From Trueperaceae bacterium (GTDB lineage: Bacteria; Deinococcota; Deinococci; Deinococcales; Trueperaceae), in the NCBI GenBank assembly GCA_965215565.1, contig CBDCDZ010000004.1, forward strand, positions 3,008,001 to 3,072,000: a stretch of 64,000 nucleotides of DNA, written 5' to 3'. The notes under the pieces were generated by a model. It saw only the letters and a list, made by a program, of their open reading frames with translations. It had not been told where the DNA came from and did not search any database. How positions within the stretch are numbered: the first letter of the stretch is position 1; every line of letters begins with the position of its first letter. The translations under genes and the position numbers were made by a program. Of this stretch, positions 2,455-17,258 are shown one piece after another.

Positions 2455-3324
2455 TTAAGCAGCTTGAGCGAAGTGTACCCTCTCGAAATCATTAGGCGAA
2501 AGGTAGCCCAACGACGAATGTTTGCGCTTGGAGTTATAGAAGCCCTCCAAATAGCTGAAGATGCTGGTTCTGGCTTGCTGGCGGGTCTGGTAGACGTTGT
2601 TTTCAACCTCCTCGGTTTTGAGCGTGGCGAAGAATGATTCAACAACGGCATTATCGTAAGCATTGCCTTTACTCGACATGCTTTGGCTGATGCCTTTGGT
2701 GTTTAGCTCGGCTCTAAAGGCGTTGCTAGCATACTGAGCCCCTTGATCGGAATGATGCAGTAGTCCTGCTAGGGTGGAGCGCTGCCGCGTTGCCATTTCC
2801 AAGGCTGAGCGCGTCAAATCATCAGTCAGCCTCTTAGAGAACGCCCAGCCGATGACTTTGCGACTGAACAAGTCGAGCGTTACAGCAAGATAGAGCCAAC
2901 CTTCAGCGGTGGCAATGTAGGTGATGTCCGAGGCCCACAGCGCGTCAGGCGTAGCAACATCGAAGTTCTGCTTGACGAGATTCTCTGCTTTAGGGCGCTG
3001 ATGGTTCGAGTCCGTTGTGGTCTTATACTTCCGCTTTGTTTTACCTCTTAGACCCGCTGCTCGCATCAAACGCGCGACGCGCTTACGCCCGATGTTATAC
3101 CCAGCATCTTTGAGGTCTCGATAAATGCGCGGCGAGCCATAGGTGCAACGACTTCCACAATGGAACTTAATGATTTCCTTTGAGAGGGTTTTGTCCTCCT
3201 TGGCTCGCCTGCTCTGAGGGCGTTTCAGCCAATCATAAAAACCACTTACTGATACAGCTAACACCTCAGCCATCAGGCTGACCGCCCACCGACCTCGGTG
3301 TTCCTTCATAAAGGTGTACCTCAC
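2455..3324 (-). CDS. IS3 transposase OrfB (DDE/rve)
   Basis: WASDITY, HHSDQGAQY and DNAVVESFFATLKTE motifs. Confidence 0.95.
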   Translation of the reverse strand: MRYTFMKEHRGRWAVSLMAEVLAVSVSGFYDWLKRPQSRRAKEDKTLSKEIIKFHCGSRCTYGSPRIYRDLKDAGYNIGRKRVARLMRAAGLRGKTKRKYKTTTDSNHQRPKAENLVKQNFDVATPDALWASDITYIATAEGWLYLAVTLDLFSRKVIGWAFSKRLTDDLTRSALEMATRQRSTLAGLLHHSDQGAQYASNAFRAELNTKGISQSMSSKGNAYDNAVVESFFATLKTEEVENNVYQTRQQARTSIFSYLEGFYNSKRKHSSLGYLSPNDFERVHFAQAA

Positions 3325-3617
3325 GTGCTTTCCTTGGCGAAGAACCCAACTGCCTTTTTTAGAATGTCACGCTCCTGCTTGACCCGCTCGAGTTCCTTCT
3401 TCAAGCGCAAATTCTCCTGCTGGTCGGCGGTTAGCGCAACCTTGCCGTTGCCCGGAAAGGCTAGCTCACTACGCTCTTGCGCCTGTCTGCGCCATTTGTA
3501 GAGGCTATGGTCACTTACTCCTAGCTCTTCGGCTATCTGAACGACGCTCACACCCGGCTGCTGGCTCAGCCTCACCGCTTCTCGTTTGAACTCTGCTGTA
3601 TACGTTCTTCTCGTCAT
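3321..3617 (-). CDS. IS3 transposase OrfA (HTH)
   Basis: RRTYTAEFKREAV...ERDILKKA; A6G slippery motif near 3354-3360 on the minus strand; GTGA overlap with orfB. Confidence 0.93.
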   Translation of the reverse strand: MTRRTYTAEFKREAVRLSQQPGVSVVQIAEELGVSDHSLYKWRRQAQERSELAFPGNGKVALTADQQENLRLKKELERVKQERDILKKAVGFFAKEST

Positions 3618-3711: not shown

Positions 3712-4367
3712 CTGACTTCGCCGACGACTAGTCGTGTCAACTCATCAAAACCACCCCAGAGCACCCCTTCTACGTCCTAGGCGATTGGGTTGATGCAGAA
3801 GACCTAGAAGTTGGAATGCCCCTAAGCACCTACGAGGGCGAGAACCTCATCCATAGCGGCACGGTCACCTCTATCAAGCGCGTCGAAGAGACCCAGACGA
3901 TGTATAACCTGACGGTTGATACTGCTCATACCTTCTTCGTGGGTGAGGGTGAGTGGTTGGTGCATAATACGGGTGCGTGTAGCATCAATGTCGGGCACAT
4001 CTTTCATGGCGAGATAAACAGGCGTGGTAGAGCTGTTGGATTTCACCATGAAGGCTCGATAGGACATGAGGGATTTGCCAGAGTCGTAGGTAGAGGAACT
4101 GAGGATGTTCATGGGGTTTATAACGCAGTTGTAGAGGTCTTAGACCCCGTTAGTAATCAGTGGGTCCGCAAGAAGGTTCCTAACCATACGATGTTCCCAA
4201 GGGATTGGTCACGCTCTCAGGTACTAGAAGAGATTCGTGGAGCGTTCTCAAATGCTACATTCAACGGGAACAGTTGGACGGGTACCTCCCCAAGCAATGT
4301 GCCTATTGGAGGTTTTCTTGATCACAATGGAAACATTAACACGGCGTTTCCGATCTATACGCCGTAA
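3712..4367 (+). CDS. Orphan toxin cassette: C-terminal half of HINT plus a second EndoU-type toxin tip
   Basis: DNA closely resembles 1470-1696 up to WLVHN|T. Tip HIFHGEINRRGRAVGFHH...K...TMFPRDW...INTAFP. An in-frame TAG near 3729 precedes it, and the ATG at 3816 is internal to HINT. Confidence 0.82.
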
Positions 4368-4386
4368 CGTTCAAAGGAGTTAAGTC

Positions 4387-4734
4387 ATGGAAGCACAGGT
4401 GCGTATGTTTAGGGATGAAAGTGGGCTACCCAGAGCAAGGGCAGCCCACCCATTAGAAGCTTTGGCGAGCTTTTTGGAGTTTGATCTACAGGGAAGAAAA
4501 GAGGCTTCAACTGACCTTCTCAGTATCATTACGGAGGTTGAAACTCAAGAAATCTCAGAATGGGAGGGTACTGGAAATGCTCATACCCTCACACTGACCT
4601 TTGATAAAGCTCATATATACAATGAGTTTGCTATACCAATCTCTGAATGCGAACTTCCTCTTGCAGACTTTAGAGATGTTGTTGAGCGCTGGCTCGAGTT
4701 CTTGACTTATCAACGAAACGTTATGAAACCATAG
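4387..4734 (+). CDS. Putative immunity protein of the orphan EndoU (YacL/UPF0231-like)
   Basis: AAGGAG RBS; small acidic ORF after the toxin tip; ends with the ...DVVERWLEF pattern. Confidence 0.65.
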   Translation: MEAQVRMFRDESGLPRARAAHPLEALASFLEFDLQGRKEASTDLLSIITEVETQEISEWEGTGNAHTLTLTFDKAHIYNEFAIPISECELPLADFRDVVERWLEFLTYQRNVMKP

Positions 4735-5227: not shown

Positions 5228-6160
5228 ATGAACCTCTCACGCTTTTTTCACACCTCATACCGTCGTCCCCTCCGTCTTCTACTTCCGCTTCTGCTCTGTA
5301 GCAGCGTCGCCTCCGCCCAACTCTTCCGCGAGACCGTCGATGCAGCGACCTTCGAGTTACAAGGACCGGTGCGCAAAGTCGAGCGTACCGTTACACTATT
5401 TGAAGGTGACGTTTCCACCCCGCTGCCCCACCTCGACACGATGACCTTCAATAAGAAGGGCTTTTTGAAAGAAGCCCTTAGCCGCGACACGGAGAGTGAC
5501 CGCGTAACCGAGCACATCGTCTACGACCACAACGGCTCAGGTAAGCTCCGCACGGTCGAGACGTACCAGCAGGAGCAACTTCTGCGCCGCGACGAGTCCC
5601 GATATCGAGGGCGGAACTGGCGGGCGACTTTCTACTACGACGCCGAAGAGCAACTCGAGGCGGTTGCCACCGTCAGGGGCTACCGCAAGGAAGTACCCGG
5701 GGGAGTGCCCCACCGGACCTACACCTTCGACGAGGCAATGCGCCCCTTAGTCGAGCGCACCTACTTCCCCGATGAGGATGAGCCCGTACGTACGGTTCGC
5801 TATACCTACGAGGACGGTCGGCTAACCAAGGCCGTCGAGCGCGGACCCGAGGGTGAGTTGCTCTCGCGCGAAGTCTACATCTACGACGAGTCAGGTCGAG
5901 TCGAAGTCAAACGCTTCTACGACGCCACCGACAGCGAGCGCACCCGCACCCGCTACCGCTACGACGAGCACGGCAACGTCGTCAACGAACGCACGGTCGA
6001 CGGTGAAGATACGCTGGTTGCTTTGCTCCGCTACCGCTATACCTACGACGAACAGGGCAACTGGCTGACCAAAACGACTCTCTTCCGCGACAGCGAAGAG
6101 GCCGAGTTCGAGCAGCAGAGCCTCGAGACCCGCACCATCAAGTACCACCGGGAGGGCTGA
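5228..6160 (+). CDS. Exported YD/RHS-like repeat protein
   Basis: Signal peptide LLLPLLLCSSVASA|Q; repeated YxYDxxGR/GN units (YIYDESGR, YRYDEHGN, YTYDEQGNW). Confidence 0.75.
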   Translation: MNLSRFFHTSYRRPLRLLLPLLLCSSVASAQLFRETVDAATFELQGPVRKVERTVTLFEGDVSTPLPHLDTMTFNKKGFLKEALSRDTESDRVTEHIVYDHNGSGKLRTVETYQQEQLLRRDESRYRGRNWRATFYYDAEEQLEAVATVRGYRKEVPGGVPHRTYTFDEAMRPLVERTYFPDEDEPVRTVRYTYEDGRLTKAVERGPEGELLSREVYIYDESGRVEVKRFYDATDSERTRTRYRYDEHGNVVNERTVDGEDTLVALLRYRYTYDEQGNWLTKTTLFRDSEEAEFEQQSLETRTIKYHREG

Positions 6161-6161
6161 G

Positions 6162-7295
6162 ATGACCGCTAAACTCGGTATCTTAGGCGGTATCAGTCTC
6201 GCCCTGCTCGCGCTGAGCGCCTGTAGCAGCGGCGACGGCACGCCCCCCTCGCTCGCCATCTTGTCCCCCGCAGCAGGTTCCCCCGTCTCGGGTACGACAA
6301 CCGTACAGGTCTCCACACCGGAGAACGCCAACGTCGAGCGCGTCACCCTCTATGCACGCGGCGCAGGCAGCGAGCGGCGTGGTCGTCCGGTCGGCTCCGC
6401 CGTGCAGGGTCCCCCCTTCGTCGTCTCCTGGAACACCACCGACGTGCCCAACCAGGCTGAGTTGGAGCTTCTAGCAGTCGGTCGCGACAGCGACGGCGAC
6501 GACGGCGAGTCCGACCCCGTCAAGGTGCGTGTGCAGAACGGCGGCGCGCCCAGCTTGCAACTCCTCACCGCGTTCACCATCGCGCCCGAGCCGGAGGCGG
6601 GTTTCAACGTGCAGACCCTATCGGGTCTAGTCAACGCTGCCGAGGTGCAGCCCCCTGCGGGCTTCGTCGCGCCGAGCCCTCTCCCTGACTCGGCTTTGGC
6701 GACTATGCAGACGGAGGGAGTGCGTGACTACGTGCTCGAGTGGCAGTGGGAGCCCTACCCCAGCGCTGAGAGCTACCGCATCATGCGTAGCGACGACGAT
6801 CTGGTCGGTCCCTATGAGGAAGACCGCTGGCAGAGCGCCGGGGCGGGCACGGGCGCGCAGAAGTTCTCGAAGACGATGGACGGGGCGAAAGCGGGCGACC
6901 GCTTCTACGGCGCGGTGAGAGCCGAGACGGAGGGTCAGATCACGGGCTACTCGAACGCCGACAGCGCCACCTTTTTGCCGCCGCAAGGGACGACCGCACC
7001 CGACGACGGTGCTCGCGTCGACAACGGTCGTCCTGTCCTGAGTTGGCCCGCCACCCCCGGCGCGGATGGCTACCTCTACTATCTCTACGACCGCGACCCC
7101 TGGGCCGAAGGCGCGACGCTCCTGTGGAGCAACTTCCCTCAGAGCGACGCAGGTCGCAGCGCCAGCTATCCCGGAAGCCGTGACGCCCTGCCGAGCGGCA
7201 CCTATAGCTGGTGGGTTGCGGGCATCTCCTTCGACGCGAACGGCAAAGCGGACGGCTTCACCTTCAGCGAGCCCCGGAGCTTCCAGGTCCCCTGA
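6162..7295 (+). CDS. Lipoprotein with Ig-like and FN3-like beta domains
   Basis: Lipobox LSAC; ILSPAAGSPVSGTTTV...WNTT Ig-like pattern; PVLSWPATPGADGY...PSGTYSWWV FN3-like pattern. Confidence 0.7.
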   Translation: MTAKLGILGGISLALLALSACSSGDGTPPSLAILSPAAGSPVSGTTTVQVSTPENANVERVTLYARGAGSERRGRPVGSAVQGPPFVVSWNTTDVPNQAELELLAVGRDSDGDDGESDPVKVRVQNGGAPSLQLLTAFTIAPEPEAGFNVQTLSGLVNAAEVQPPAGFVAPSPLPDSALATMQTEGVRDYVLEWQWEPYPSAESYRIMRSDDDLVGPYEEDRWQSAGAGTGAQKFSKTMDGAKAGDRFYGAVRAETEGQITGYSNADSATFLPPQGTTAPDDGARVDNGRPVLSWPATPGADGYLYYLYDRDPWAEGATLLWSNFPQSDAGRSASYPGSRDALPSGTYSWWVAGISFDANGKADGFTFSEPRSFQVP

Positions 7296-7298
7296 GTC

Positions 7299-7329
7299 AA
7301 AAAGCTCACCCCCCAGGGGCGAGCTTTTT
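7299..7329 (+). terminator. Probable intrinsic terminator
   Basis: AAAAAGCTC...GAGCTTTTT stem with an inner GC hairpin, immediately after the stop at 7295. Confidence 0.55.
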
Positions 7330-7370
7330 CCCTTCCTAAAGGTTTCAAACCCTCTACAGTAGCCCTTGCG

Positions 7371-9407
7371 ATGCGCCCTTCTCTGCCTCCCTTACGCGCC
7401 CTCTGCGCTCTCGCTCTACTCCTCTTGAACGCCTGCGGTGGGGGCGAGTCACCCTACACGCTGACCGCCGTGCTACCCTCGCCGGTGACACCCGGTGAAA
7501 CAGCCGTCGTGTACGGCACACTCCCTCAAGATACAACCCTCTCACTCGACGAGACCTTGGTGCTCGGCACGCTGGTGCCCGGCGGTTTAGAGTTCACCGT
7601 ACCCGAAGCGGCGATAGCCGGGAGCCAGGTCCTCTCGGCTCGTATCGGCGGTCAAACGCTCTCCGGTGCCCTGCAAGTCGTGCCGCGCCTCGACACGGCG
7701 ACGTTGGCGGGGAACACCCTTACGGTACACGGTGCGGGCTGGCCTCTCGAAACATCGGCAGAAACGCCGGTCACGCTCGAGGTGGTAGGCAAAGCGCTTA
7801 CCCCTACGCTGAGCGCCGGGCAGCTTCAAGCCACTTTGCCCGACCTGACGCGCTACGGCTCCCTTTCGGTACGAGTCAAGGTCAACGACCAGGTGAGTAA
7901 CGCGCTGAACGTGGTGCGCGAGGCGGGTGCGGTTCAGGGTAAAGTGGTGTTCCCGGCGGAATCTGATGCAGCCCGCATACCAGCGTCACTAGAGGTTCAA
8001 GCAACAGACACCTCTAATTTCAGCGCCTTGCTCGTCTTCGCGGACGAAGCAGAACTCGAAGACCTCGAACTCGAGGGGCTAGAGCATATAGAGTCTCTCC
8101 CCGCCCTCGGCGTCACTCGGCTGAGCTTCGCCACCCGCGCCCAGGCTCGAGCAGCCTATCTATCCCTCAAAGCAGCAGGATTCGGTCTCGAGTACGACCT
8201 CCCCATTCGCACCGACGGCTTTGCAAGCTTGCAAGCGGATGTTCCCGATGAACCTGGCACGGGTCAGTGGCATCTGCCTCTACTCGGTCTCGAGCCCGCT
8301 TGGGAAGCCACGAAGGGCGGAGGTGTCGTCGTCGCGGTTGTCGATACCGGCGTCCAGCTCGATCACCCCGATTTAGTCGCAAACCTCCTACCCGGTTACG
8401 ACTTCGTGGACGGCAACGACCAGCCTTACGACCTCGCTGGACACGGCACGCATGTGGCGGGGCTTGTCGCCGCGAACGGGCAGGTCCTAGGAACCGCGCC
8501 TGAAGCTAAGCTTCTACCCATCCGCTCCCTCGAGGGCACCGCAGGCGGCAGCGCCTTCACCGTAGCGCAGGGCATCTTGTGGGCTGCAGGGCTAGGTGAG
8601 ATGGAGAACCCCAATCCCGCCGACGTCATCAACCTCTCCTTGGGCACGAGCGGCTATTCGGCCACGTTAGCGGGCGCGGTGACTGCGGCGCAGGCGACGG
8701 GTGTCGTGGTGGTAGCCGCTACGGGAAACAGCAGCGGTCCCTTGGCTTACCCTGCCGCCCTACCCGGCGTTCTCTCAGTGACCGCTTTAGCCGGACCCGA
8801 CATCGCGTATCAGCCCTGGTACGCCAACAAAGGAACCGGCGTGTGGGTTACAGGCTACGGTGGCGACACCACCCAGGACCAAGACAGAGACGGCTTTGAC
8901 GACGGCATCCTCTCAGCGGATTTGGGAGGCTACGCCCGGCGTATGGGCACCTCGATGGCTGCGCCGCAGGTCGCTGGCTTAGCCGCACTCGCGCTGGCTT
9001 CGGGGACGCCTGCTGAACTGGTACGGGATACGTTAGGTCACACCGCCACCGATCTCGGCGTGATGGGCTACGACGCCTCGTTCGGCTACGGTTTGGCGAC
9101 GGGGAGAACGGCTGGTCCAAGTACCCCTCGCAGCTACGTATTGGCGCTCGCCGAAAACGAAGTTGTGGGTTGGTCCTTGGTGCAAGCTGACGGGTCATAT
9201 CGACTCGACAATCTCCCTGTAGATCGTTCACTCGCCCTCGTCGCTGCCAGCGACGAGGATGGCGACACCGTCCTCGGCGAGTCTGGTGAGTTGCTCTCGG
9301 TCCCTGTTCCCTTTACACCCACGCCTGGCGACGTGCTCGAAGCGCGCGACCTCACCCTCACCCTCTCTGAGGGTTCCACATCCTATTCTTTGGAGGCTAC
9401 CCCCTAA
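7371..9407 (+). CDS. S8 (subtilisin-like) serine protease lipoprotein with N-terminal IPT/Ig-like domains
   Basis: Lipobox LNAC; catalytic motifs VAVVDTG, HGTHVAG and GTSMAAP. Confidence 0.92.
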   Translation: MRPSLPPLRALCALALLLLNACGGGESPYTLTAVLPSPVTPGETAVVYGTLPQDTTLSLDETLVLGTLVPGGLEFTVPEAAIAGSQVLSARIGGQTLSGALQVVPRLDTATLAGNTLTVHGAGWPLETSAETPVTLEVVGKALTPTLSAGQLQATLPDLTRYGSLSVRVKVNDQVSNALNVVREAGAVQGKVVFPAESDAARIPASLEVQATDTSNFSALLVFADEAELEDLELEGLEHIESLPALGVTRLSFATRAQARAAYLSLKAAGFGLEYDLPIRTDGFASLQADVPDEPGTGQWHLPLLGLEPAWEATKGGGVVVAVVDTGVQLDHPDLVANLLPGYDFVDGNDQPYDLAGHGTHVAGLVAANGQVLGTAPEAKLLPIRSLEGTAGGSAFTVAQGILWAAGLGEMENPNPADVINLSLGTSGYSATLAGAVTAAQATGVVVVAATGNSSGPLAYPAALPGVLSVTALAGPDIAYQPWYANKGTGVWVTGYGGDTTQDQDRDGFDDGILSADLGGYARRMGTSMAAPQVAGLAALALASGTPAELVRDTLGHTATDLGVMGYDASFGYGLATGRTAGPSTPRSYVLALAENEVVGWSLVQADGSYRLDNLPVDRSLALVAASDEDGDTVLGESGELLSVPVPFTPTPGDVLEARDLTLTLSEGSTSYSLEATP

Positions 9408-10765
9408 TGCCACGTTCGTCACTTCTACGCTTTAGGCGCTCTCTGCGCTCGAGTCTCTATTTGCTCACACTCCTGTTCGCTGCTACAACGTTCGCCCAGG
9501 TCAACTTGAGCGCCACCTATAGTGGCGACGTGGTGACCTTTGTAGGCGACCACAATATCCGCTACTTGGCAGACTACGCCACGAACACATTGGTATTGCC
9601 CGGCTCAGTGCTGAGCGACAAAGAGACCAAGTTTCCTGCGGGCTACGCGGTCACTTTAGAAGATGACCAAGTCAGAGTCGAAGTAGGTCAACCTTTTCGC
9701 GTTACCCTCTCCAGCAACGAGCGTGTCCTGACGCTCGTGCGCGGTGAGACGCTGGGTGCAGTGCCCGAGCGGATCGCAGGTGACGACCGCGCCCCAGTAA
9801 TGTACCGCTTAGCTAACGCTGAGCCGAGCCAAGTCGCCTCGCACCTCAGGAGCTTGTACGACTTACCCGTCGAGGTGGACCAGCGCCAACGCGCTCTCTT
9901 AGTGCGGGTCAATCCGCAGGACCGGACGCTCGTCGATGAGATCGTTACCGCTTTAGACGAAGCCCGTCCCCAAGTCATGTTCGAAGCCGAGATCGTCGAG
10001 GTCAACCAGTCGGTCACGCAGAGCTTGGGCATCAACTACGACTCGCTCTTCTCCTTTACCCTGACCGAGGGGGAAGTGCCTTCGGTCTTCGGTGCGGGTC
10101 CCTTCTCGCGCAACGGTATGTCGCTGACGCTTGGGTTGAACCTGCTCAAGACGAACGGAGCCGCTAACGTACTCGCGCGACCCAGGGTCACGACCTTAGA
10201 CGGCGTCCAAGCGCAGATCAACGCCACCCAATCGTTTCCAGTCGTCGTCTCCAGTTCGAACGGTCAGGAGAGCGTGCAGAACATCACTACGGGTATCCAG
10301 CTCTCGATGACGCCTAAGATCAGCCCGGACGGACAGGTGGAAGCCGAGTTGTCCATCTCAGTCTCGACACCGACAGGCATTACCTCGCAGAAGGTTCCTA
10401 CGTTTAGCAGCCGAGAAGCCTCCACTACAGTCAGAGTCGCCAACGGCGAGCCCATCGCCATCGGCGGGTTGTACGAGAAGCGTACCCTTAAAGGGGTGTC
10501 GAAAGTCCCTATCTTAGGGGACATTCCCATCCTCGGCGCACTCTTCACCTCCACCTCGACCGAGGAGCGCGAAACCGACCTGGTGATCGTGGTTACGCCG
10601 CGCATCGTAGATATGCCCAACGTGCGCGCGGTGCGCTCGGACGTAGCGCCGGTGGTCGTCGAGACGCCCGCAGAAGAAGAGACGCTCGAGACAGCGGCGG
10701 ACGAGGCGAGCACGAGCTTGGTAAATCCACTGCCACAAGTGGAAGAACCCGGCGAGCTACCTTGA
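9407..10765 (+). CDS. Outer-membrane secretin (GspD/PilQ superfamily) with a single N3-type domain
   Basis: LDEARPQVMFEAEIVEV, LARPRVTTLDG, TTVRVANGEPIAIGGL, KVPILGDIPILGALF and DLVIVVTPRIV; start overlaps the protease stop (TAATG). Confidence 0.92.
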   Translation: MPRSSLLRFRRSLRSSLYLLTLLFAATTFAQVNLSATYSGDVVTFVGDHNIRYLADYATNTLVLPGSVLSDKETKFPAGYAVTLEDDQVRVEVGQPFRVTLSSNERVLTLVRGETLGAVPERIAGDDRAPVMYRLANAEPSQVASHLRSLYDLPVEVDQRQRALLVRVNPQDRTLVDEIVTALDEARPQVMFEAEIVEVNQSVTQSLGINYDSLFSFTLTEGEVPSVFGAGPFSRNGMSLTLGLNLLKTNGAANVLARPRVTTLDGVQAQINATQSFPVVVSSSNGQESVQNITTGIQLSMTPKISPDGQVEAELSISVSTPTGITSQKVPTFSSREASTTVRVANGEPIAIGGLYEKRTLKGVSKVPILGDIPILGALFTSTSTEERETDLVIVVTPRIVDMPNVRAVRSDVAPVVVETPAEEETLETAADEASTSLVNPLPQVEEPGELP

Positions 10766-10823
10766 GCCCTTCGATGTGAAGAATTGAGCGTAGCACAACG
10801 AGGGGGAGTCGATAGACTGACGC

Positions 10824-11270
10824 ATGATTCGTCTGTGCTTAGTTTTTCTGCTCCTTCTTCTTGTCGCCTGTACACCAGCGACGGAGCCTGCACCCGAGCC
10901 GCCAGTGAGCACGAGTGATCCCGAGGTCTATAAGCGACTCATCGCGCCCTTTGAGGCTGACCTCGAGCGCTTAGGCGTCACCCTCACCGGCTACCAGACC
11001 TACCGCTACGAAGGCAATAACCCGAACGGCTTCATCACGGCTATCAACACCTTCTACCGCGCGTACCCCGGCTTCTGCCCCCTAGTCGACGCCTTCTACG
11101 CTGCGCCTAACAGCGCGCAGTTTATGACCGTGGCGAGTAACAACGGGACGCAAGTTCGCGTCTTCTTATATGACCAGTCGCGCCGACCGCGTTTGACGTA
11201 CGCTTACGTCGAAGGGGTGAGTCAGCAGCTCTTACCGGCGGTGGTTTGTGAGACGGTGACGGGGGACTAG
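10824..11270 (+). CDS. Small lipoprotein of unknown function (possible pilotin-like partner)
   Basis: Lipobox LVAC; TAGACT 5 nt before the ATG; follows the secretin. Confidence 0.65.
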   Translation: MIRLCLVFLLLLLVACTPATEPAPEPPVSTSDPEVYKRLIAPFEADLERLGVTLTGYQTYRYEGNNPNGFITAINTFYRAYPGFCPLVDAFYAAPNSAQFMTVASNNGTQVRVFLYDQSRRPRLTYAYVEGVSQQLLPAVVCETVTGD

Positions 11271-11344: not shown

Positions 11345-12964
11345 CTATTCCTGGTAGAAGTTGCCAGCGATGTTCGCGTCGGTAACTTCTACCCATCCCT
11401 CTTTCACTGCCTCTATCCCCATGAGCTTCTCCGGCTCTCTGCTGACAACCATCAGCACCGCGTCCTCTTCGACGAGCCATTCTTCGAGTTTACTGAAGTT
11501 ACGCCGCACCGTCCGCGAATCGTATTTACCGTACCCGCAAAGCAAATAGCGCTTCTTGCCTTCAGGTGAACGCAAGCTGATAAGGAATCGCCCTTCCTTC
11601 TTCAAATACGTCCAGCCTTGCGCCTCGAGCTTCTCCCTCACTCTGCGTCTCATCACCTGCCCAGCAGCAGTATTGGGCGTCAGAGGAGGACATTGGCATA
11701 CGCCGAGCGCCCTTCTACCTCGTGAGCCAATCGAGACTAACGTGCCCAAAGGACTGTCCAACGTCGTGAGGTAGCGTTGGTTGAGCAAATACTCGGAGTC
11801 GACCACTCGTGTGCAAACAACCTCTATACGATCTGCGCCATGCTCCAACAAATCTTGCAGGCAGGCTTTGTCTTGCCCGGTCAAGTCACCGTAAGCATTG
11901 GGCGGTTTGTGTTCTTTCTCAAATCGGAGTCTTGCCTCATGCGCTTCGTCTACGGCAGTTTCTAGCCAGAGAGGAACCTCGCCCATATCGCCTAACAAAT
12001 ACGACGGAGCCATCTCAGTCTGCGCATAAGCCTGGATAAAGCGCTCGGACCAATCTCCGAACAGCCACGCTGCCATCCTCAAAAGCTGATGACGGTTGAT
12101 AAAGGGCTGGTATTCGAAATCGTTCGGCGTGTCCGCGAGGTCAAAGGCCATATCAGGTATGCCCACACGCTCGGCGACATGAGCGCCGAACGGTCCTGTA
12201 TGGCGCGTACCAGTGAGGGCGGTAAGGAGAGGGCGCAACCCGTCGAAATACGCCAGGCTCGAGTGTACGGACTCATGCGCCTTGCCGTGACTCGGAAGCG
12301 TTGTGTAGCCGGTCTCGAGAGCGTTCAGCAACTTCGCCTGAAACGTTCTGATGTCAGGGTCAGCTACCTTCAACCTCGAGGGGTCGTTCCCGCTCAAATC
12401 TTTGCCGCACCGATGACACACGTTGATAGGAACATCGGAAGGCTCGGTTTTGTTCGTATGCACACCCATATCGACTTTGTGAGGCGCGACGGGCGCTTTG
12501 CAGTTCGGGCAGCGGTCGAGGAGCAACGTCCCGTGTTCGGGGCAAACCGTCACAAAAGCAAGTCGCCACAACCGCCGGAAGTAGGGCGGGTCCTGCGCTA
12601 AGCATAGGGGACAATACTGCAAGCCGTAGCGTTTTCGGGAACGATGATAGACACCTGCGTGCAGTATCCAGCGGTTGTTGCTGTTGGGACTGTGTTTGGC
12701 GTAGAGCTTGCCTGCGTAGGGCCATAAGGTGGTGTGGTAGAGGCTCGAGACGTGCTGACCGGACTGGAAAGCTAAGGGCAAGAGTAGCTTCAGCGGAGCC
12801 GACTTGTCCACATCGCGGTTCCACACCTGGTGGTCGGGGACGGTGAGCTTGGTGAAGCTATGGAGCTTCTGCAAGTTCTCCTTGGCGAAGCGGATGAGCC
12901 AGCTACTGAGCAGTTCGTCGGGTAGGGGGTGTGGGTGAACTGGCCAGACGTTACCCGAGATCAT
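11345..12964 (-). CDS. tniQ: TniQ/TnsD-family target selector with an extra C-terminal domain
   Basis: PLPDELLSSWLIR N-terminus; YCPLCL...WRL..VTVCPEH..LLDRCPNC zinc motifs plus CHRCG. Confidence 0.9.
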   Translation of the reverse strand: MISGNVWPVHPHPLPDELLSSWLIRFAKENLQKLHSFTKLTVPDHQVWNRDVDKSAPLKLLLPLAFQSGQHVSSLYHTTLWPYAGKLYAKHSPNSNNRWILHAGVYHRSRKRYGLQYCPLCLAQDPPYFRRLWRLAFVTVCPEHGTLLLDRCPNCKAPVAPHKVDMGVHTNKTEPSDVPINVCHRCGKDLSGNDPSRLKVADPDIRTFQAKLLNALETGYTTLPSHGKAHESVHSSLAYFDGLRPLLTALTGTRHTGPFGAHVAERVGIPDMAFDLADTPNDFEYQPFINRHQLLRMAAWLFGDWSERFIQAYAQTEMAPSYLLGDMGEVPLWLETAVDEAHEARLRFEKEHKPPNAYGDLTGQDKACLQDLLEHGADRIEVVCTRVVDSEYLLNQRYLTTLDSPLGTLVSIGSRGRRALGVCQCPPLTPNTAAGQVMRRRVREKLEAQGWTYLKKEGRFLISLRSPEGKKRYLLCGYGKYDSRTVRRNFSKLEEWLVEEDAVLMVVSREPEKLMGIEAVKEGWVEVTDANIAGNFYQE

Positions 12965-13889
12965 TGAACAGGAGTTCAGCCTCTTTGCGCCGCTCCGAAG
13001 GCAAGACCCAGTCGATCCCCTTCAGGGCATTCTCGTCGATGAACTCCGTTCCCTGCCGTATCGCATAGACCGCCGCTTCGTTCAAGATGGTCGAGAGTTC
13101 GCCGATATGCCCCTCGGACATGTCGTGCAGCTTGACGCCGAGCTTAGCGAGGTTCGAAGGGCGCTTCAGGGGAATGAGCTTCTCAAAGCTCATCAACAGC
13201 TTCGCGAACCCTTCGTCCTTTTTCCACAGCGGGAGCGGGGCGGGCTTGAAGCGGTTGGCGAGCTGCGGGTCGATCTGAAGGGCGCGTAACGCATCCTTCG
13301 TCCCTACCCCGACGATAGGAATTCGCAATTCGTTTCCTAAGTATTTGATGGCTTGCAAGACCCGTCGCTGCTGCCGCGCCGTACCGGAGAGGACGTGATG
13401 GAGTTCGTCGATGATCAGCACCTTCGTCTCGATACGCTGCAAGAGTCCCATCGCCTGGTGCTGCTTGCGGCTAGCTTTATCGGTCTCTTTGAAAGGCGCG
13501 AAGAGCTTCTTGAGAAGTTCCTCGTATAGCCGCCCTTCGTCCGCCTCGGGCGGTGCTTGAAAGAGCACCACCGGGATGTGTATGGACTCGCCACTCAGGT
13601 TATCGTCCGCCGGATTATCGGCTAAAAACTTCCTGACCAACTCGGTCTTGCCGTTGTTCGTCGGACCGACGATCAGCAGATTGGGCATCCGGTTCGTCTT
13701 GGGATGAGTGATGAGGTCTTGTAGCTGATCGCGGATTTTGTTGGTGCGGGTGTAGCCGATCCAGCGCGGACTTTTGATATGGAGGATGCGGTCCTCTTCG
13801 GTGTCGCCCAATACTTCCCGCGCCCTCGGGGTCAGATGCGCGTAGGGCTCGAGCGTTTCGCTCGGGCGGGGACGCTGTAACGTGCTCAT
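12951..13889 (-). CDS. tniB: TniB/TnsC AAA+ transposition regulator
   Basis: PRWIGY, Walker A GPTNNGKT, Walker B IIDELH, DPQLANRF. Confidence 0.93.
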   Translation of the reverse strand: MSTLQRPRPSETLEPYAHLTPRAREVLGDTEEDRILHIKSPRWIGYTRTNKIRDQLQDLITHPKTNRMPNLLIVGPTNNGKTELVRKFLADNPADDNLSGESIHIPVVLFQAPPEADEGRLYEELLKKLFAPFKETDKASRKQHQAMGLLQRIETKVLIIDELHHVLSGTARQQRRVLQAIKYLGNELRIPIVGVGTKDALRALQIDPQLANRFKPAPLPLWKKDEGFAKLLMSFEKLIPLKRPSNLAKLGVKLHDMSEGHIGELSTILNEAAVYAIRQGTEFIDENALKGIDWVLPSERRKEAELLFNDLG

Positions 13890-15788
13890 TTAGCTCTCCT
13901 GCAATTCGTCGAAGGGCGTGATGCTCGAGAGATCGAACGGGAAAGCCTGCTCCTGCGCGTCGTCTCGGCGCTCGGGCGGCGGCTTCCCGGCGGGTTTAGA
14001 GGGTTTCGTAGCCTTAGCGTGCTCCGTGCGGCGCTGCACGTTCCGGCGGGCGCTCCGGGTCTTCCTGGCGGCTTCTTCCTCGATTTCGCGCATTCGAGCC
14101 ATAGCCGCGAAGAGGTCGTCCTCGTTGATCTTCTCCGCACCCTGCTTCTTGAGGTGGCGGACGACTTTGCGCATCTCCCAGAGGCTCGCAGGGGGGCGGA
14201 TTACGTTCGCATAAGGGATTTCGTAGTACCTGTCCAGTTCGGGGTCCAGGAAGTAGATGCGGCTCATATCTCTAGGGTCGTAGCGGATGATGAACTTGCG
14301 CTTCTCGTTCTTATGCTTCGGGTTCGGCGCGTGTATCCAGCGCCTCAACACGTCGCTGTAGTAGTCCACATAGTAGTAGCGGACGCCGTAGTTCTGCACC
14401 GTCGTCCGGTCGTAGAAGGGCATTAGGTCGAGCCGCAACCGCTCTTCGTCCAAAACGAAGGCCGGCAGCCCGCGCCCCGGCTGCTCGTCGTTGCCGAGGA
14501 TGGCTTCTTCGTAGCGTACCAACGGGCTCGTGAAGATTTCGCTGTGGACGCGGTTATGGTACTTGACCAAGAGTTGGGCGAGCCAAGTTTCGAACTCCGA
14601 CAGGGTCATGACGGCGCTCCCGGCGGAGTCGTAGTCGCGCTTCTCCTGAACGTTGTGGAAGGTGGTGCCGGGGAGCTTATGAATATCCGCCGCGAAGGTG
14701 TCCATGAGCCGCTCGATGTGACCGCCGAACTCAGCTTTCCCTTTAGGGCGGAAGTCACTCTCGATGTCGTACTCCTTGCAAGCCCGGCGGAGCATCTTGC
14801 CTCTGAACTCCTTAGCGGTGTCCGCGTGGACTGCCTCCGGCAACCCCCAGCACGGCCAGGAAGCCTCGACGCCGTACTGCGCCAGCCACCGCTCCTTAGG
14901 CAAGATAGCGCGGGTCAAGCAGGAACCGACAGCGAAGGCGTTGGGGCTGTCGAAGGAGATATAGAAGCCCAAGCACATGCGGCTGTAGACGTCGATGGCG
15001 AGGGTGATCCAGGGTCGTCCGATGGCGATGCGATAGACGTCGTCTACGAGCTCCAGGTCTACCTTAGTGTGGTCTATCTGCACGGTCTGCAAGGGAAAGT
15101 TACCATCGGGAAAGGAGCCCGTTTTGGGATCGTACTTCTGTTCGGCGGCGCGTTTGCCGTGACGCTTACTGAGCCGCTTCTTCTCCTCGATGGCGGCGAT
15201 TCGCCGCCGGATTGTCGAGTCTCCCGGTGGTGTCAGTTTGGGTGTGGCGTTACGGCATTTGAGAAGGACGTCGTCGATAGTGTCTTGAACCGAGCGTCGT
15301 TGAGGCGTGAGGTAGCGCTCATTGATGGCTTCCTCGATAATCGCTTCGAGCGCCGGGTCGAGCCGCTTGCCGGACTTGCCCGGCTTGTTAGGGATGAGAT
15401 CAGTGACGCGCCCACCCCCTTCGTAGCGTTTGAGCCAGCGGTAGAGGGTGTTGGTACTCACACCGACCTTCTTCGCTCTCTGGGCGACGTCGGCACGGGT
15501 ACGGCGGCGGTCTTTGATAGCGAGCAGCGGGCGGATAGCTTTGTAGCGTTCGGCTCCGATGTTCCACTCGGCATCGGGTGTGGCGACGAGATCGTAGCCG
15601 ACCCCTTTGCCTTCTTCGGAGACGGGGGGCAGGTCCGGCTTGAGGGTGTGAACGTTCAGGCGTTTGAGTTCTCCGGAAGTCTCCTCGCGACCCAGGACGG
15701 TTTGCATGTCGAGGACGTGGGTGATGATGTAGTGCTTGCCCGCGTAGGTGACGGGGTTGCCGATGGCGGGCTCGACGGATATGGACAT
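13890..15788 (-). CDS. tnsB: TnsB/TniA DDE transposase (Mu-type C-terminus)
   Basis: HTH (VSTNTLYRWLKRY), QIDHT, LAIDVYSR, HADTAKEF, GHIER, RYDPRDMS. Start moved to the ATG at 15788 after an AGGAG RBS. Confidence 0.93.
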   Translation of the reverse strand: MSISVEPAIGNPVTYAGKHYIITHVLDMQTVLGREETSGELKRLNVHTLKPDLPPVSEEGKGVGYDLVATPDAEWNIGAERYKAIRPLLAIKDRRRTRADVAQRAKKVGVSTNTLYRWLKRYEGGGRVTDLIPNKPGKSGKRLDPALEAIIEEAINERYLTPQRRSVQDTIDDVLLKCRNATPKLTPPGDSTIRRRIAAIEEKKRLSKRHGKRAAEQKYDPKTGSFPDGNFPLQTVQIDHTKVDLELVDDVYRIAIGRPWITLAIDVYSRMCLGFYISFDSPNAFAVGSCLTRAILPKERWLAQYGVEASWPCWGLPEAVHADTAKEFRGKMLRRACKEYDIESDFRPKGKAEFGGHIERLMDTFAADIHKLPGTTFHNVQEKRDYDSAGSAVMTLSEFETWLAQLLVKYHNRVHSEIFTSPLVRYEEAILGNDEQPGRGLPAFVLDEERLRLDLMPFYDRTTVQNYGVRYYYVDYYSDVLRRWIHAPNPKHKNEKRKFIIRYDPRDMSRIYFLDPELDRYYEIPYANVIRPPASLWEMRKVVRHLKKQGAEKINEDDLFAAMARMREIEEEAARKTRSARRNVQRRTEHAKATKPSKPAGKPPPERRDDAQEQAFPFDLSSITPFDELQES

Positions 15789-15796
15789 TGTGTCTC

Positions 15797-16474
15797 CTAG
15801 TCTAAGTCTAAACTCCAGAGTTCGCTGGTCATCGTCAGGGGAACGTTGAGGTCCGCGCCTATCCATTTGCGCGAGACCAAGTTCCAGACGACGGGCAGGA
15901 GCTTGGCTTGATTGGTGCGGTCCGAGTAGATCGCGCTGAGCAGGTCGGCAGGCGTGGTGGTTTGCAAGATGGCGAGGGTGTCGATGACGAGGGGGATGTG
16001 AGGGTCGTCTTCCATGCTGCGGTAGCGCTGCAAGAACTTGGCGTTGTCCAAGTAGGGCGTGCGGATTTCCCGCTCGGTCAAGATACAGAACCTCCAGCCC
16101 TCTTCACGGGCGTGGGTCTGCGCCGCCCTGAATTTCGGTTTGAATTCGCACCACTTCTTCCGCAGAATCTCGCGCGGTTTGACCTCGCAGAGCAGCGTCG
16201 GCATCTCTTTGGCGGGGGTGATGTCGTTGCGGTAGCGCACGAGCACGTCGGGCGTGTAGGTACGCTCCTTGCCGTTTTCGTCCGTATATTCCAGGACCAT
16301 CGGCTGAACAAAGAACGCCGCCACGTTGAGGTCGAAGCGGAGGATGCGGAGGAAATCGCGCTCCAACGCCGACTCGAACTCCGCCATGTCCTGACCCTCT
16401 TTGGCAGGCGTCGCGCCCGTCAAGCTCAACCAGGTAGGCTTGATTTTACGAACCGGCTTGAACTCATCCGCCAT
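15797..16474 (-). CDS. tnsA: TnsA endonuclease
   Basis: FESALERDF...QP...YTPDVLV...EVKP...LTEREIR; probable start at ATG 16474. Confidence 0.92.
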   Translation of the reverse strand: MADEFKPVRKIKPTWLSLTGATPAKEGQDMAEFESALERDFLRILRFDLNVAAFFVQPMVLEYTDENGKERTYTPDVLVRYRNDITPAKEMPTLLCEVKPREILRKKWCEFKPKFRAAQTHAREEGWRFCILTEREIRTPYLDNAKFLQRYRSMEDDPHIPLVIDTLAILQTTTPADLLSAIYSDRTNQAKLLPVVWNLVSRKWIGADLNVPLTMTSELWSLDLD

Positions 16475-16484
16475 ATACACAACC

Positions 16485-16607
16485 AGTACCAACAATTACA
16501 GTCATATCGTCAACCAGTCCCAGTAATCGAGAAAAGCAGTCACACGGATTGTGACCGAATACCCCTATTATGATCCTTATTAGTACCATTGATTGTGGTG
16601 GTTGTCA
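16485..16607 (-). repeat. Transposon end with about four imperfect TnsB-binding repeats
   Basis: Minus-strand 16-mers CACAATCAATGGTACT (16582-16597), CACAATCCGTGTGACT (16538-16553), CTCGATTACTGGGACT (16516-16531) and TGTAATTGTTGGTACT (16485-16500); terminus 5'-TGACAACC. Confidence 0.7.
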
Positions 16608-17258
16608 GGCGGCAACATTCCACGACCCGGCGAGGTCAGCTTGGCGCACCGAGGCGTCCTCTTCTTAGATGAGTTTCCCGAGTTTAGCCGCCAAGCCTTA
16701 GAGGTCTTGCGGCAGCCGATGGAGGACGGCGTCGTGACGATCAGCCGCGCGAGGGCGGCGCTGACCTTCCCCGCGCGCTTCACGCTCGTCGCCTCGCAAA
16801 ATCCATGTCCATGCGGTCACTACGGCGATACAGGCAAAGAATGCTCCTGCACGCCCGTCATGCGGAACCGCTACCGCGAACGCATCAGCGGACCGCTCTT
16901 AGACAGGCTCGACTTGCGCATCCAAGTCCCGCGCCTCAGCGCCGACGACCTCATGAACGCCTCGCCAGGCGAGCCGAGCGAAGGGGTGCGCGCGCGCGTC
17001 TTAGCGGCGCGAACGCTCGCACTGAAGCGTCAAGGTGTGCCGAACGCGGAGTTGAGCGGTCAGGCGTTACGAAGGCATACGGCGCTCAAAGATGGACCGG
17101 AAGCCTTTGCGAAGAGCGTCATCCGGCAGCTTTCGCTCTCCGGGCGCGGCTATGACAGGCTCTTGCGCGTGGCGCGAACCGTGGCGGACTTGGCGCAAGC
17201 CGAGGGCGTGAGCGAAGCCCACCTCGCTGAAGCGGTGAGCTACCGGGGCGACTTGTAA
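16608..17258 (+). pseudogene. comM: 3' half of comM (YifB/Mg-chelatase-like AAA+), split by the transposon
   Basis: Begins abruptly at [26 protein letters not shown]; also [16 protein letters not shown] and [12 protein letters not shown]; no Walker A or N-terminal half. Confidence 0.92.

Follow-up and report, generated by a model that had tools for sequence, protein, structure and literature searches.

The TniQ protein of a Tn7-like transposon that splits the comM gene of a Trueperaceae bacterium carries a distinct C-terminal domain, related to a family of mostly short, stand-alone proteins and structurally reminiscent of conjugative relaxases. We propose, at about even confidence, that this domain is a captured, nuclease-dead DNA-binding arm which replaced an ancestral small helix-turn-helix (HTH) tail and which would share target recognition with the TniQ core. 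Positions below are those of the window, meaning the whole 64,000-nucleotide stretch analysed, unless they are prefixed with a contig or locus.

TniQ is fused to a distinct C-terminal domain

The tniQ ORF (11345-12964, minus strand) encodes a protein of 539 aa and closes a tnsA-tnsB-tnsC-tniQ operon. Residues 1-345 (11930..12964, minus strand) form the TniQ core, in which a zinc finger lies between two helical regions. The Pfam TniQ match (E 3e-27) is restricted to aa 8-148, and TniQ/TnsD structures superpose on aa 2-360 only, those of TnsD on aa 2-333 at most. The same core is also found as TniQ proteins of 330-345 aa; among the 116 further core relatives listed, 90 are no longer than 380 aa and none carries the C-terminal domain. 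It is followed by a linker (aa 346-359, including KPPNAYG; 11888..11929, minus strand), whose residues 353-359 are modelled with low confidence (pLDDT < 50) ahead of a 180-aa unit in the full-length prediction. This unit spans aa 360-539 (11345..11887 including the stop codon, minus strand).

A sequence-only reading of this DNA had proposed that TniQ was fused to a separate unit of about 185 aa, with a winged helix followed by a degenerate restriction-endonuclease-like fold. All six motifs quoted there were located (VPLWLETAVD at aa 330-339, KPPNAYG at 353-359, LDSPLG... at 402-421, RRRVREK... at 439-453, SPEGKKRYLL at 466-475 and AVLMVVS at 502-508). The fusion is borne out at slightly under the claimed size, and the fold call was right: the AF2 model of the domain (pLDDT 90, pTM 0.81) and its structural matches place a winged HTH (wHTH) subdomain at aa 360-423 (11696..11887, minus strand) and a restriction-endonuclease-like alpha/beta subdomain, devoid of conserved catalytic acids, at aa 429-535 (11360..11680, minus strand). 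Searched alone against Pfam, the tail gives no match at E<=10. The domain is neutral in net charge (27 K+R versus 26 D+E). Between the two copies in this genome, identity at codon positions 1, 2 and 3 is 74, 79 and 49% in the domain (140 codons) and 68, 78 and 53% in the core, a pattern from which the tail is evidently under purifying selection. Given the stand-alone family described below, the fold modelled at pLDDT 90 and this core-like codon-position pattern, the domain is more than a chance extension.

The best full-length structural matches of the domain are phage proteins. The top four viral matches span the whole domain at TMq 0.60-0.69, and the structural matches listed contain no TnsD. 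The one viral match checked, phage G gp146, is a Replic_Relax protein (E 4e-25), that is, a member of the MOBC relaxase family. The domain family lacks the catalytic PD and ExD acids at the corresponding strands, whereas these acids are invariant in the Replic_Relax-like genes that neighbour its stand-alone members; arginines R417, R440, R484, R487 and R488 are conserved in the domain family. The PF13814 (Replic_Relax) profile matched none of ten alignment members, nor the domain alone. An hhalign comparison likewise gave no match between the domain and Replic_Relax, but the same test missed two true Replic_Relax sets too, so its power is low. The models suggest that the domain is structurally akin to MOBC/Replic_Relax relaxases, a kinship that profile comparison leaves unconfirmed.

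The domain belongs to a family found beside conjugation genes

Stand-alone homologues of the domain, which the earlier reading had thought worth looking for, do exist: a profile search recovered a family of 186 representatives, and of the 150 listed, 138 do not exceed 260 aa. A TniQ core sequence is present in just 9 of the 156 stored proteins bearing the domain. Stand-alone genes occur in 23 of 200 other genomes of the order, and their context was read in seven 20-kb regions, an eighth contig being too short and left out. A Replic_Relax-like neighbour is present in all seven and a VirB4 match in six, one partial. Since the neighbour profile was built from these same genes, independent support for the Replic_Relax assignment consists of Pfam matches below the cut-off (E 2e-5 to 0.012) in all five genes tested. 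In three proteins (P0122, P0140 and P0151) the domain is itself fused to Replic_Relax. A FastTree tree of 48 selected sequences (midpoint root; P0019 counted as fused by judgement) places the TniQ-fused copies in one clade (support 1.0) nested inside the stand-alone family. The simplest reading of this topology is that the domain was captured once, from a Deinococcota conjugative element, the direction of transfer presumably being from that element to TniQ. As a separate observation, loci L047-L053 are Deinococcota conjugation clusters that pair an intact Replic_Relax gene with a dead paralogue-like gene, the latter outside every Pfam family.

The 46-kb element in comM

The element is 46,339 bp long and its tnsA-side boundary lies at 16607. 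On the minus strand with tniQ are tnsC, the AAA+ regulator (12951..13889; Pfam TniB, E 2e-72), tnsB, the DDE transposase (13890..15866; Pfam Mu-transpos_C and rve), and tnsA (15797..16495; Pfam Tn7_TnsA-like_N, E 1.5e-18). The tnsA-proximal end (TGACAACCACCACAAT...; 16496..16607, minus strand) and the far end (TGTGAACCACCACAAT...; C4:2978269, 29.7 kb before the window) are inverted TGAC/TGTG termini. They are flanked by a 5-bp target-site duplication, GGCGG (16608..16612, plus strand), the same five bases preceding the far end, and the element is a Tn7-like transposon. The 3' part of the split comM (16608..17258, plus strand; PRPGE...FLDE Walker B; Pfam Mg_chelatase) contains the candidate binding site of the selector, and the 5' part lies at C4:2977424-2978268. 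At the far end, a 632-aa ORF pointing inward on the strand opposite to the tniQ operon (C4:2978356-2980254) encodes a TnsE homologue. A profile of 31 TnsE-like proteins gives Tn6022 orf4 (TnsE) 25.1 bits, whereas none of 200 shuffled sequences exceeds 2.8; the pairwise match to orf4 is weak (E 0.003), and Pfam TnsE_C matches one of nine members (E 0.058).

The sequence-only reading had made a comM-recognition role of the domain conditional on the absence of TnsF, and none was found in this genome (G000) with Acinetobacter baumannii TnsF as a single query, which matched one of 364 genomes of the phylum (G328) and which a very distant TnsF could escape. The best TnsF match inside the element has an E value of 0.21. 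The gene after tniQ is a convergent lipoprotein-like ORF rather than tnsF, and no conserved partner gene was seen downstream of tniQ. Nothing elsewhere in the genome resembles a spacer against the comM or comEC flanks: exact matches do not exceed 17 nt, and the longer, imperfect ones are at chance level. Inspection of the element's ORF lists by eye revealed no cas-like genes. The cargo includes the C-terminus of a polymorphic toxin (HINT + EndoU), followed by a small ORF, and a second HINT cassette (116-2356 and 3816-4734), with an IS3-like element (2455-3617) between the two HINT regions. A further run at 5228-11270, convergent with tniQ, encodes an RHS-repeat protein, an Ig-domain lipoprotein, an S8 peptidase, a secretin and a small lipoprotein.

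Other carriers of the domain

Insertion flanks are known for only three domain carriers: comM, comEC and a non-comM flank. The comEC copy is a paralogous 52-kb element (L003; G000:C4:3661479-3713598) that interrupts comEC; its target duplication is 4 bp long instead of 5 bp. Its TniQ is 58% identical to that of the comM element (54% in the tail), and it has its own TnsE homologue and several cargo genes in common with the comM element. Its tnsA and tniQ are broken. In tniQ, two frameshifts compensate each other and a stop codon falls immediately ahead of the domain. Every full-length member of the fused clade retains the domain. The comM and comEC flanks are identical at 15 of 55 positions, a level matched by 98% of random sites; with no common sequence, one fixed motif cannot serve both. 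The third carrier, the P0007 element (the record read carries P0007 residues at 7/7 codons checked), is 84-91% identical to the comM element in its tnsABC DNA and end, but its tniQ has been replaced and its flank beyond the position equivalent to 16608 is not comM; the insertion was possibly made by TnsE. Between carriers with different flanks, aa 360-479 are the most diverged part of the protein (42% identity to P0007 versus 54-65% in the core). P0002 is the reverse mosaic, with a domain 84-88% identical and a core 53-60% identical. As part of our preferred explanation, and with the same even confidence, these mosaics suggest that elements swap tniQ alleles or tails with one another.

The genome also holds a third Tn7-like locus (L005:4886-13922; G000:C4:1548886-1557922) with tnsA, an IS-broken tnsB, tnsC and, on the opposite strand, a short TniQ. 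It includes type I-E-like cas8e, cas7, cas5 and cas6e genes (NCBIfam), adjoins a ruvC-like gene and is a possible type I-E CRISPR-associated transposon.

Relatives without the domain insert at the same comM site

Among the best 80 of 322 confirmed loci with a related TniQ core, 25 insertions lie in comM, 43 elsewhere and 12 could not be placed; none of these 80 has the domain, and none has a TnsF match in the fetched flanks. Twenty-four domain-less elements share one orientation in comM and lie 15-24 bp ahead of the PGE codons. This set draws on the best 80 loci plus four Deinococcota loci and excludes two further junctions, one at a second end in L167, the other at a cargo fragment in L168. 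The offset of the present element, 18 bp, is the modal one, common to six of the 24; L096, one of the 24, has TnsF and sits at offset 17 of the same comM site. The comM-inserted relatives are spread over most basal branches of the core tree, and because elements lacking the domain fill these branches, the comM address is older than the domain capture. Tails in these relatives are a ~50-aa HTH-like segment, the same with a longer helical part, an IS630-like HTH, or almost nothing, and the ancestral short HTH tail is unrelated to the wHTH of the domain, with no match between them. L167, L168 and L094 occupy the comM site with TniQ tails of just 23, 11 and 24 aa, and the L167 element, complete between the comM halves, shows no TnsF. 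Insertion in comM was seen for 23 of 29 placeable loci with a tail of at least 35 aa and for 2 of 39 with a shorter one; the short-tailed non-comM loci fall nearly all in one clade (support 0.97), so the tail-comM link comes close to a single event. The sequence-only reading had suggested that the domain could be the comM-recognition module, a proposal that is only partly supported. The tail-comM association in the family favours a role for the tails, but the 24 domain-less elements at the site make it unlikely that the domain is the origin of comM targeting.

Several of these loci deserve mention in their own right. L110-L187 (25 of the best 80 loci), L081, L082 and L094 form a cross-phylum group with TnsABC and TniQ, in some cases with a TnsE-like protein, inserted in comM and mostly at one site. 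They show no TnsF match, their TniQ tails are unrelated or absent, and L114, L167 and L142 are complete examples; this group is possibly the more general finding. L154 and L187 are opposite-orientation comM insertions; in L187 the tnsE-like gene immediately follows tniQ, on its strand. L120 has tandem TniQ genes of about 390 and 534 aa. The Deinococcus-family elements L083, L085, L086, L087, L089, L091 and L095, most with IS630-like HTH tails on TniQ, occupy a second comM site, comEC, a methyltransferase-like gene and a gene whose motifs suggest that it is comF-like, which would amount to repeated retargeting to competence genes.

Discussion

Our preferred explanation is that this TniQ acts as a TnsD-like one-piece target selector, with a TniQ core joined to a C-terminal DNA-binding arm. 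The TniQ core recruits TnsC, as is established for the family. The arm would be a nuclease-dead wHTH and restriction-endonuclease-fold protein, acquired in a single event from conjugative elements of Deinococcota, that took the place of the small HTH tail carried by many relatives. Since comM targeting predates the capture, the core, perhaps through its second helical region, probably holds much of the inherited address; the arm would most likely add DNA grip or bending and tune which site is used. Core and arm together may bind and distort the conserved comM codons beside the tnsA end, upon which TnsC would load and TnsAB insert, with the TnsE homologue providing a putative route to mobile DNA. 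The fusion, the modelled fold, the donor family with its gene context, the insertion sites and the site held in common with relatives are observations, whereas DNA binding by the arm, this division of labour and the direction of capture are inferences.

It is also conceivable, though rather unlikely, that the domain alone reads the target, having evolved for comM here and for comEC in the paralogue, with the core as a mere adaptor. The lack of a detectable TnsF fits this idea, as does the divergence of aa 360-479 between carriers with different flanks, and the TnsF-type L096 indicates that unrelated readers can converge on the comM site. There is precedent too: the available text of an archaeal preprint (bioRxiv 10.1101/2025.07.27.667033) reports different DNA-binding domains with conserved target types, and that of PMC12857230 describes the MOBC relaxase TraX, with an N-terminal wHTH, as binding specific oriT repeats. 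A newly captured domain unrelated to the ancestral tail would nevertheless need to arrive again at the ancestral site, and at its modal offset, and the near-tailless L167, L168 and L094 reach that site regardless, L167 with no TnsF match.

Two further possibilities appear improbable. An unseen partner (a host protein, a trans-acting selector or an RNA guide) might pick the target, leaving the arm as a docking surface or passenger. Short TniQs are said, in the available text of PMC10293859, to mark elements with a separate selector, the third Tn7-like locus has type I-E cas genes, and the comEC tniQ stops just before the domain; set against this are the purifying selection on a tail kept throughout the full-length clade, the lack of spacer-like matches to either target flank and the lack of a conserved gene downstream of tniQ. 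Slightly more doubtful still is an arm that keeps its affinity for oriT repeats or for an active Replic_Relax partner, steering the transposon to ICEs and plasmids and leaving comM to the core. The donor genes do belong to conjugation clusters, next to a relaxase-like gene with its PD...ExD acids intact, natural domain-Replic_Relax fusions exist and one carrier has a non-comM flank, but both chromosomal copies sit in competence genes, each already carries a TnsE homologue, and profile A4 found no Replic_Relax gene in this genome. Were it true, recognition of the oriT repeats or relaxosome of Deinococcota ICEs would be a protein-guided route to conjugative elements beside comM homing, and the arm a target selector derived from a relaxase, a counterpart of the captured Cas effectors and TnsF.

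If the proposed capture is right, a nuclease-dead, relaxase-like conjugation protein would be a new donor class among the parts captured by TniQ, with an identifiable donor family. The comM elements of several phyla in which no TnsF was found, with unrelated or near-absent tails, make the sequence specificity of the TniQ core directly testable, and natural allele swaps on near-identical transposase backbones are ready-made chimera experiments. These questions bear on protein-guided integrases and on how mobile elements switch off natural transformation.

Comparison with known systems

The portions of the literature available to us cover TnsF, one TniQ-TnsF fusion and the domestication of dead enzymes (Faure 2023, PMC10293859), the requirement of Tn6022 for TnsF (Correa 2024, PMC11014353), crRNA targeting of comM and comEC (Hsieh and Peters, PMC9881144) and tail swapping as an established route to new targets (the archaeal preprint); those of PMC11406308 and PMC8649781 contain nothing on a TniQ-domain fusion. 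Our search, with subscription papers and supplements outside its scope, returned neither a TniQ tail derived from a relaxase nor a comM family that is protein-guided without TnsF. Tail swapping is thus already published; a nuclease-dead, relaxase-like donor was not found in the searched literature.

Tn6022/AbaR elements (TnsABC + TniQ + TnsF + TnsE), as described in the accessible text of PMC10293859 and PMC11014353, likewise split comM with a 5-bp duplication, and share the gene order tnsA-B-C-tniQ and a tnsE homologue on the opposite strand. The present element differs in having no TnsF that we could find and a 180-aa domain fused to TniQ instead, and its TniQ core, 24% identical to the Acinetobacter protein, sits on another branch of the core tree. 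TnsD of Tn7 and of CAST I-B/I-D also combines core and long tail in one chain as the sole TniQ of the element, but TnsD tails consist of multiple HTH domains (available text of PMC10293859), in contrast to the wHTH and restriction-endonuclease fold seen here. MOBC/Replic_Relax proteins (PF13814) such as TraX of pAD1 resemble the domain in having a wHTH before a PD-(D/E)xK-type fold and in their conjugation context; the domain, which lacks a Pfam match, a profile match and catalytic acids, appears to be a separate paralogous family. The principle of capturing new C-terminal domains is the same as in the published swaps of TniQ DNA-binding domains, as far as the available texts describe them (archaeal C2H2 fingers and HTH_17, and the TniQ-TnsF fusion), whereas the donor here would be a dead relaxase-like conjugation protein.
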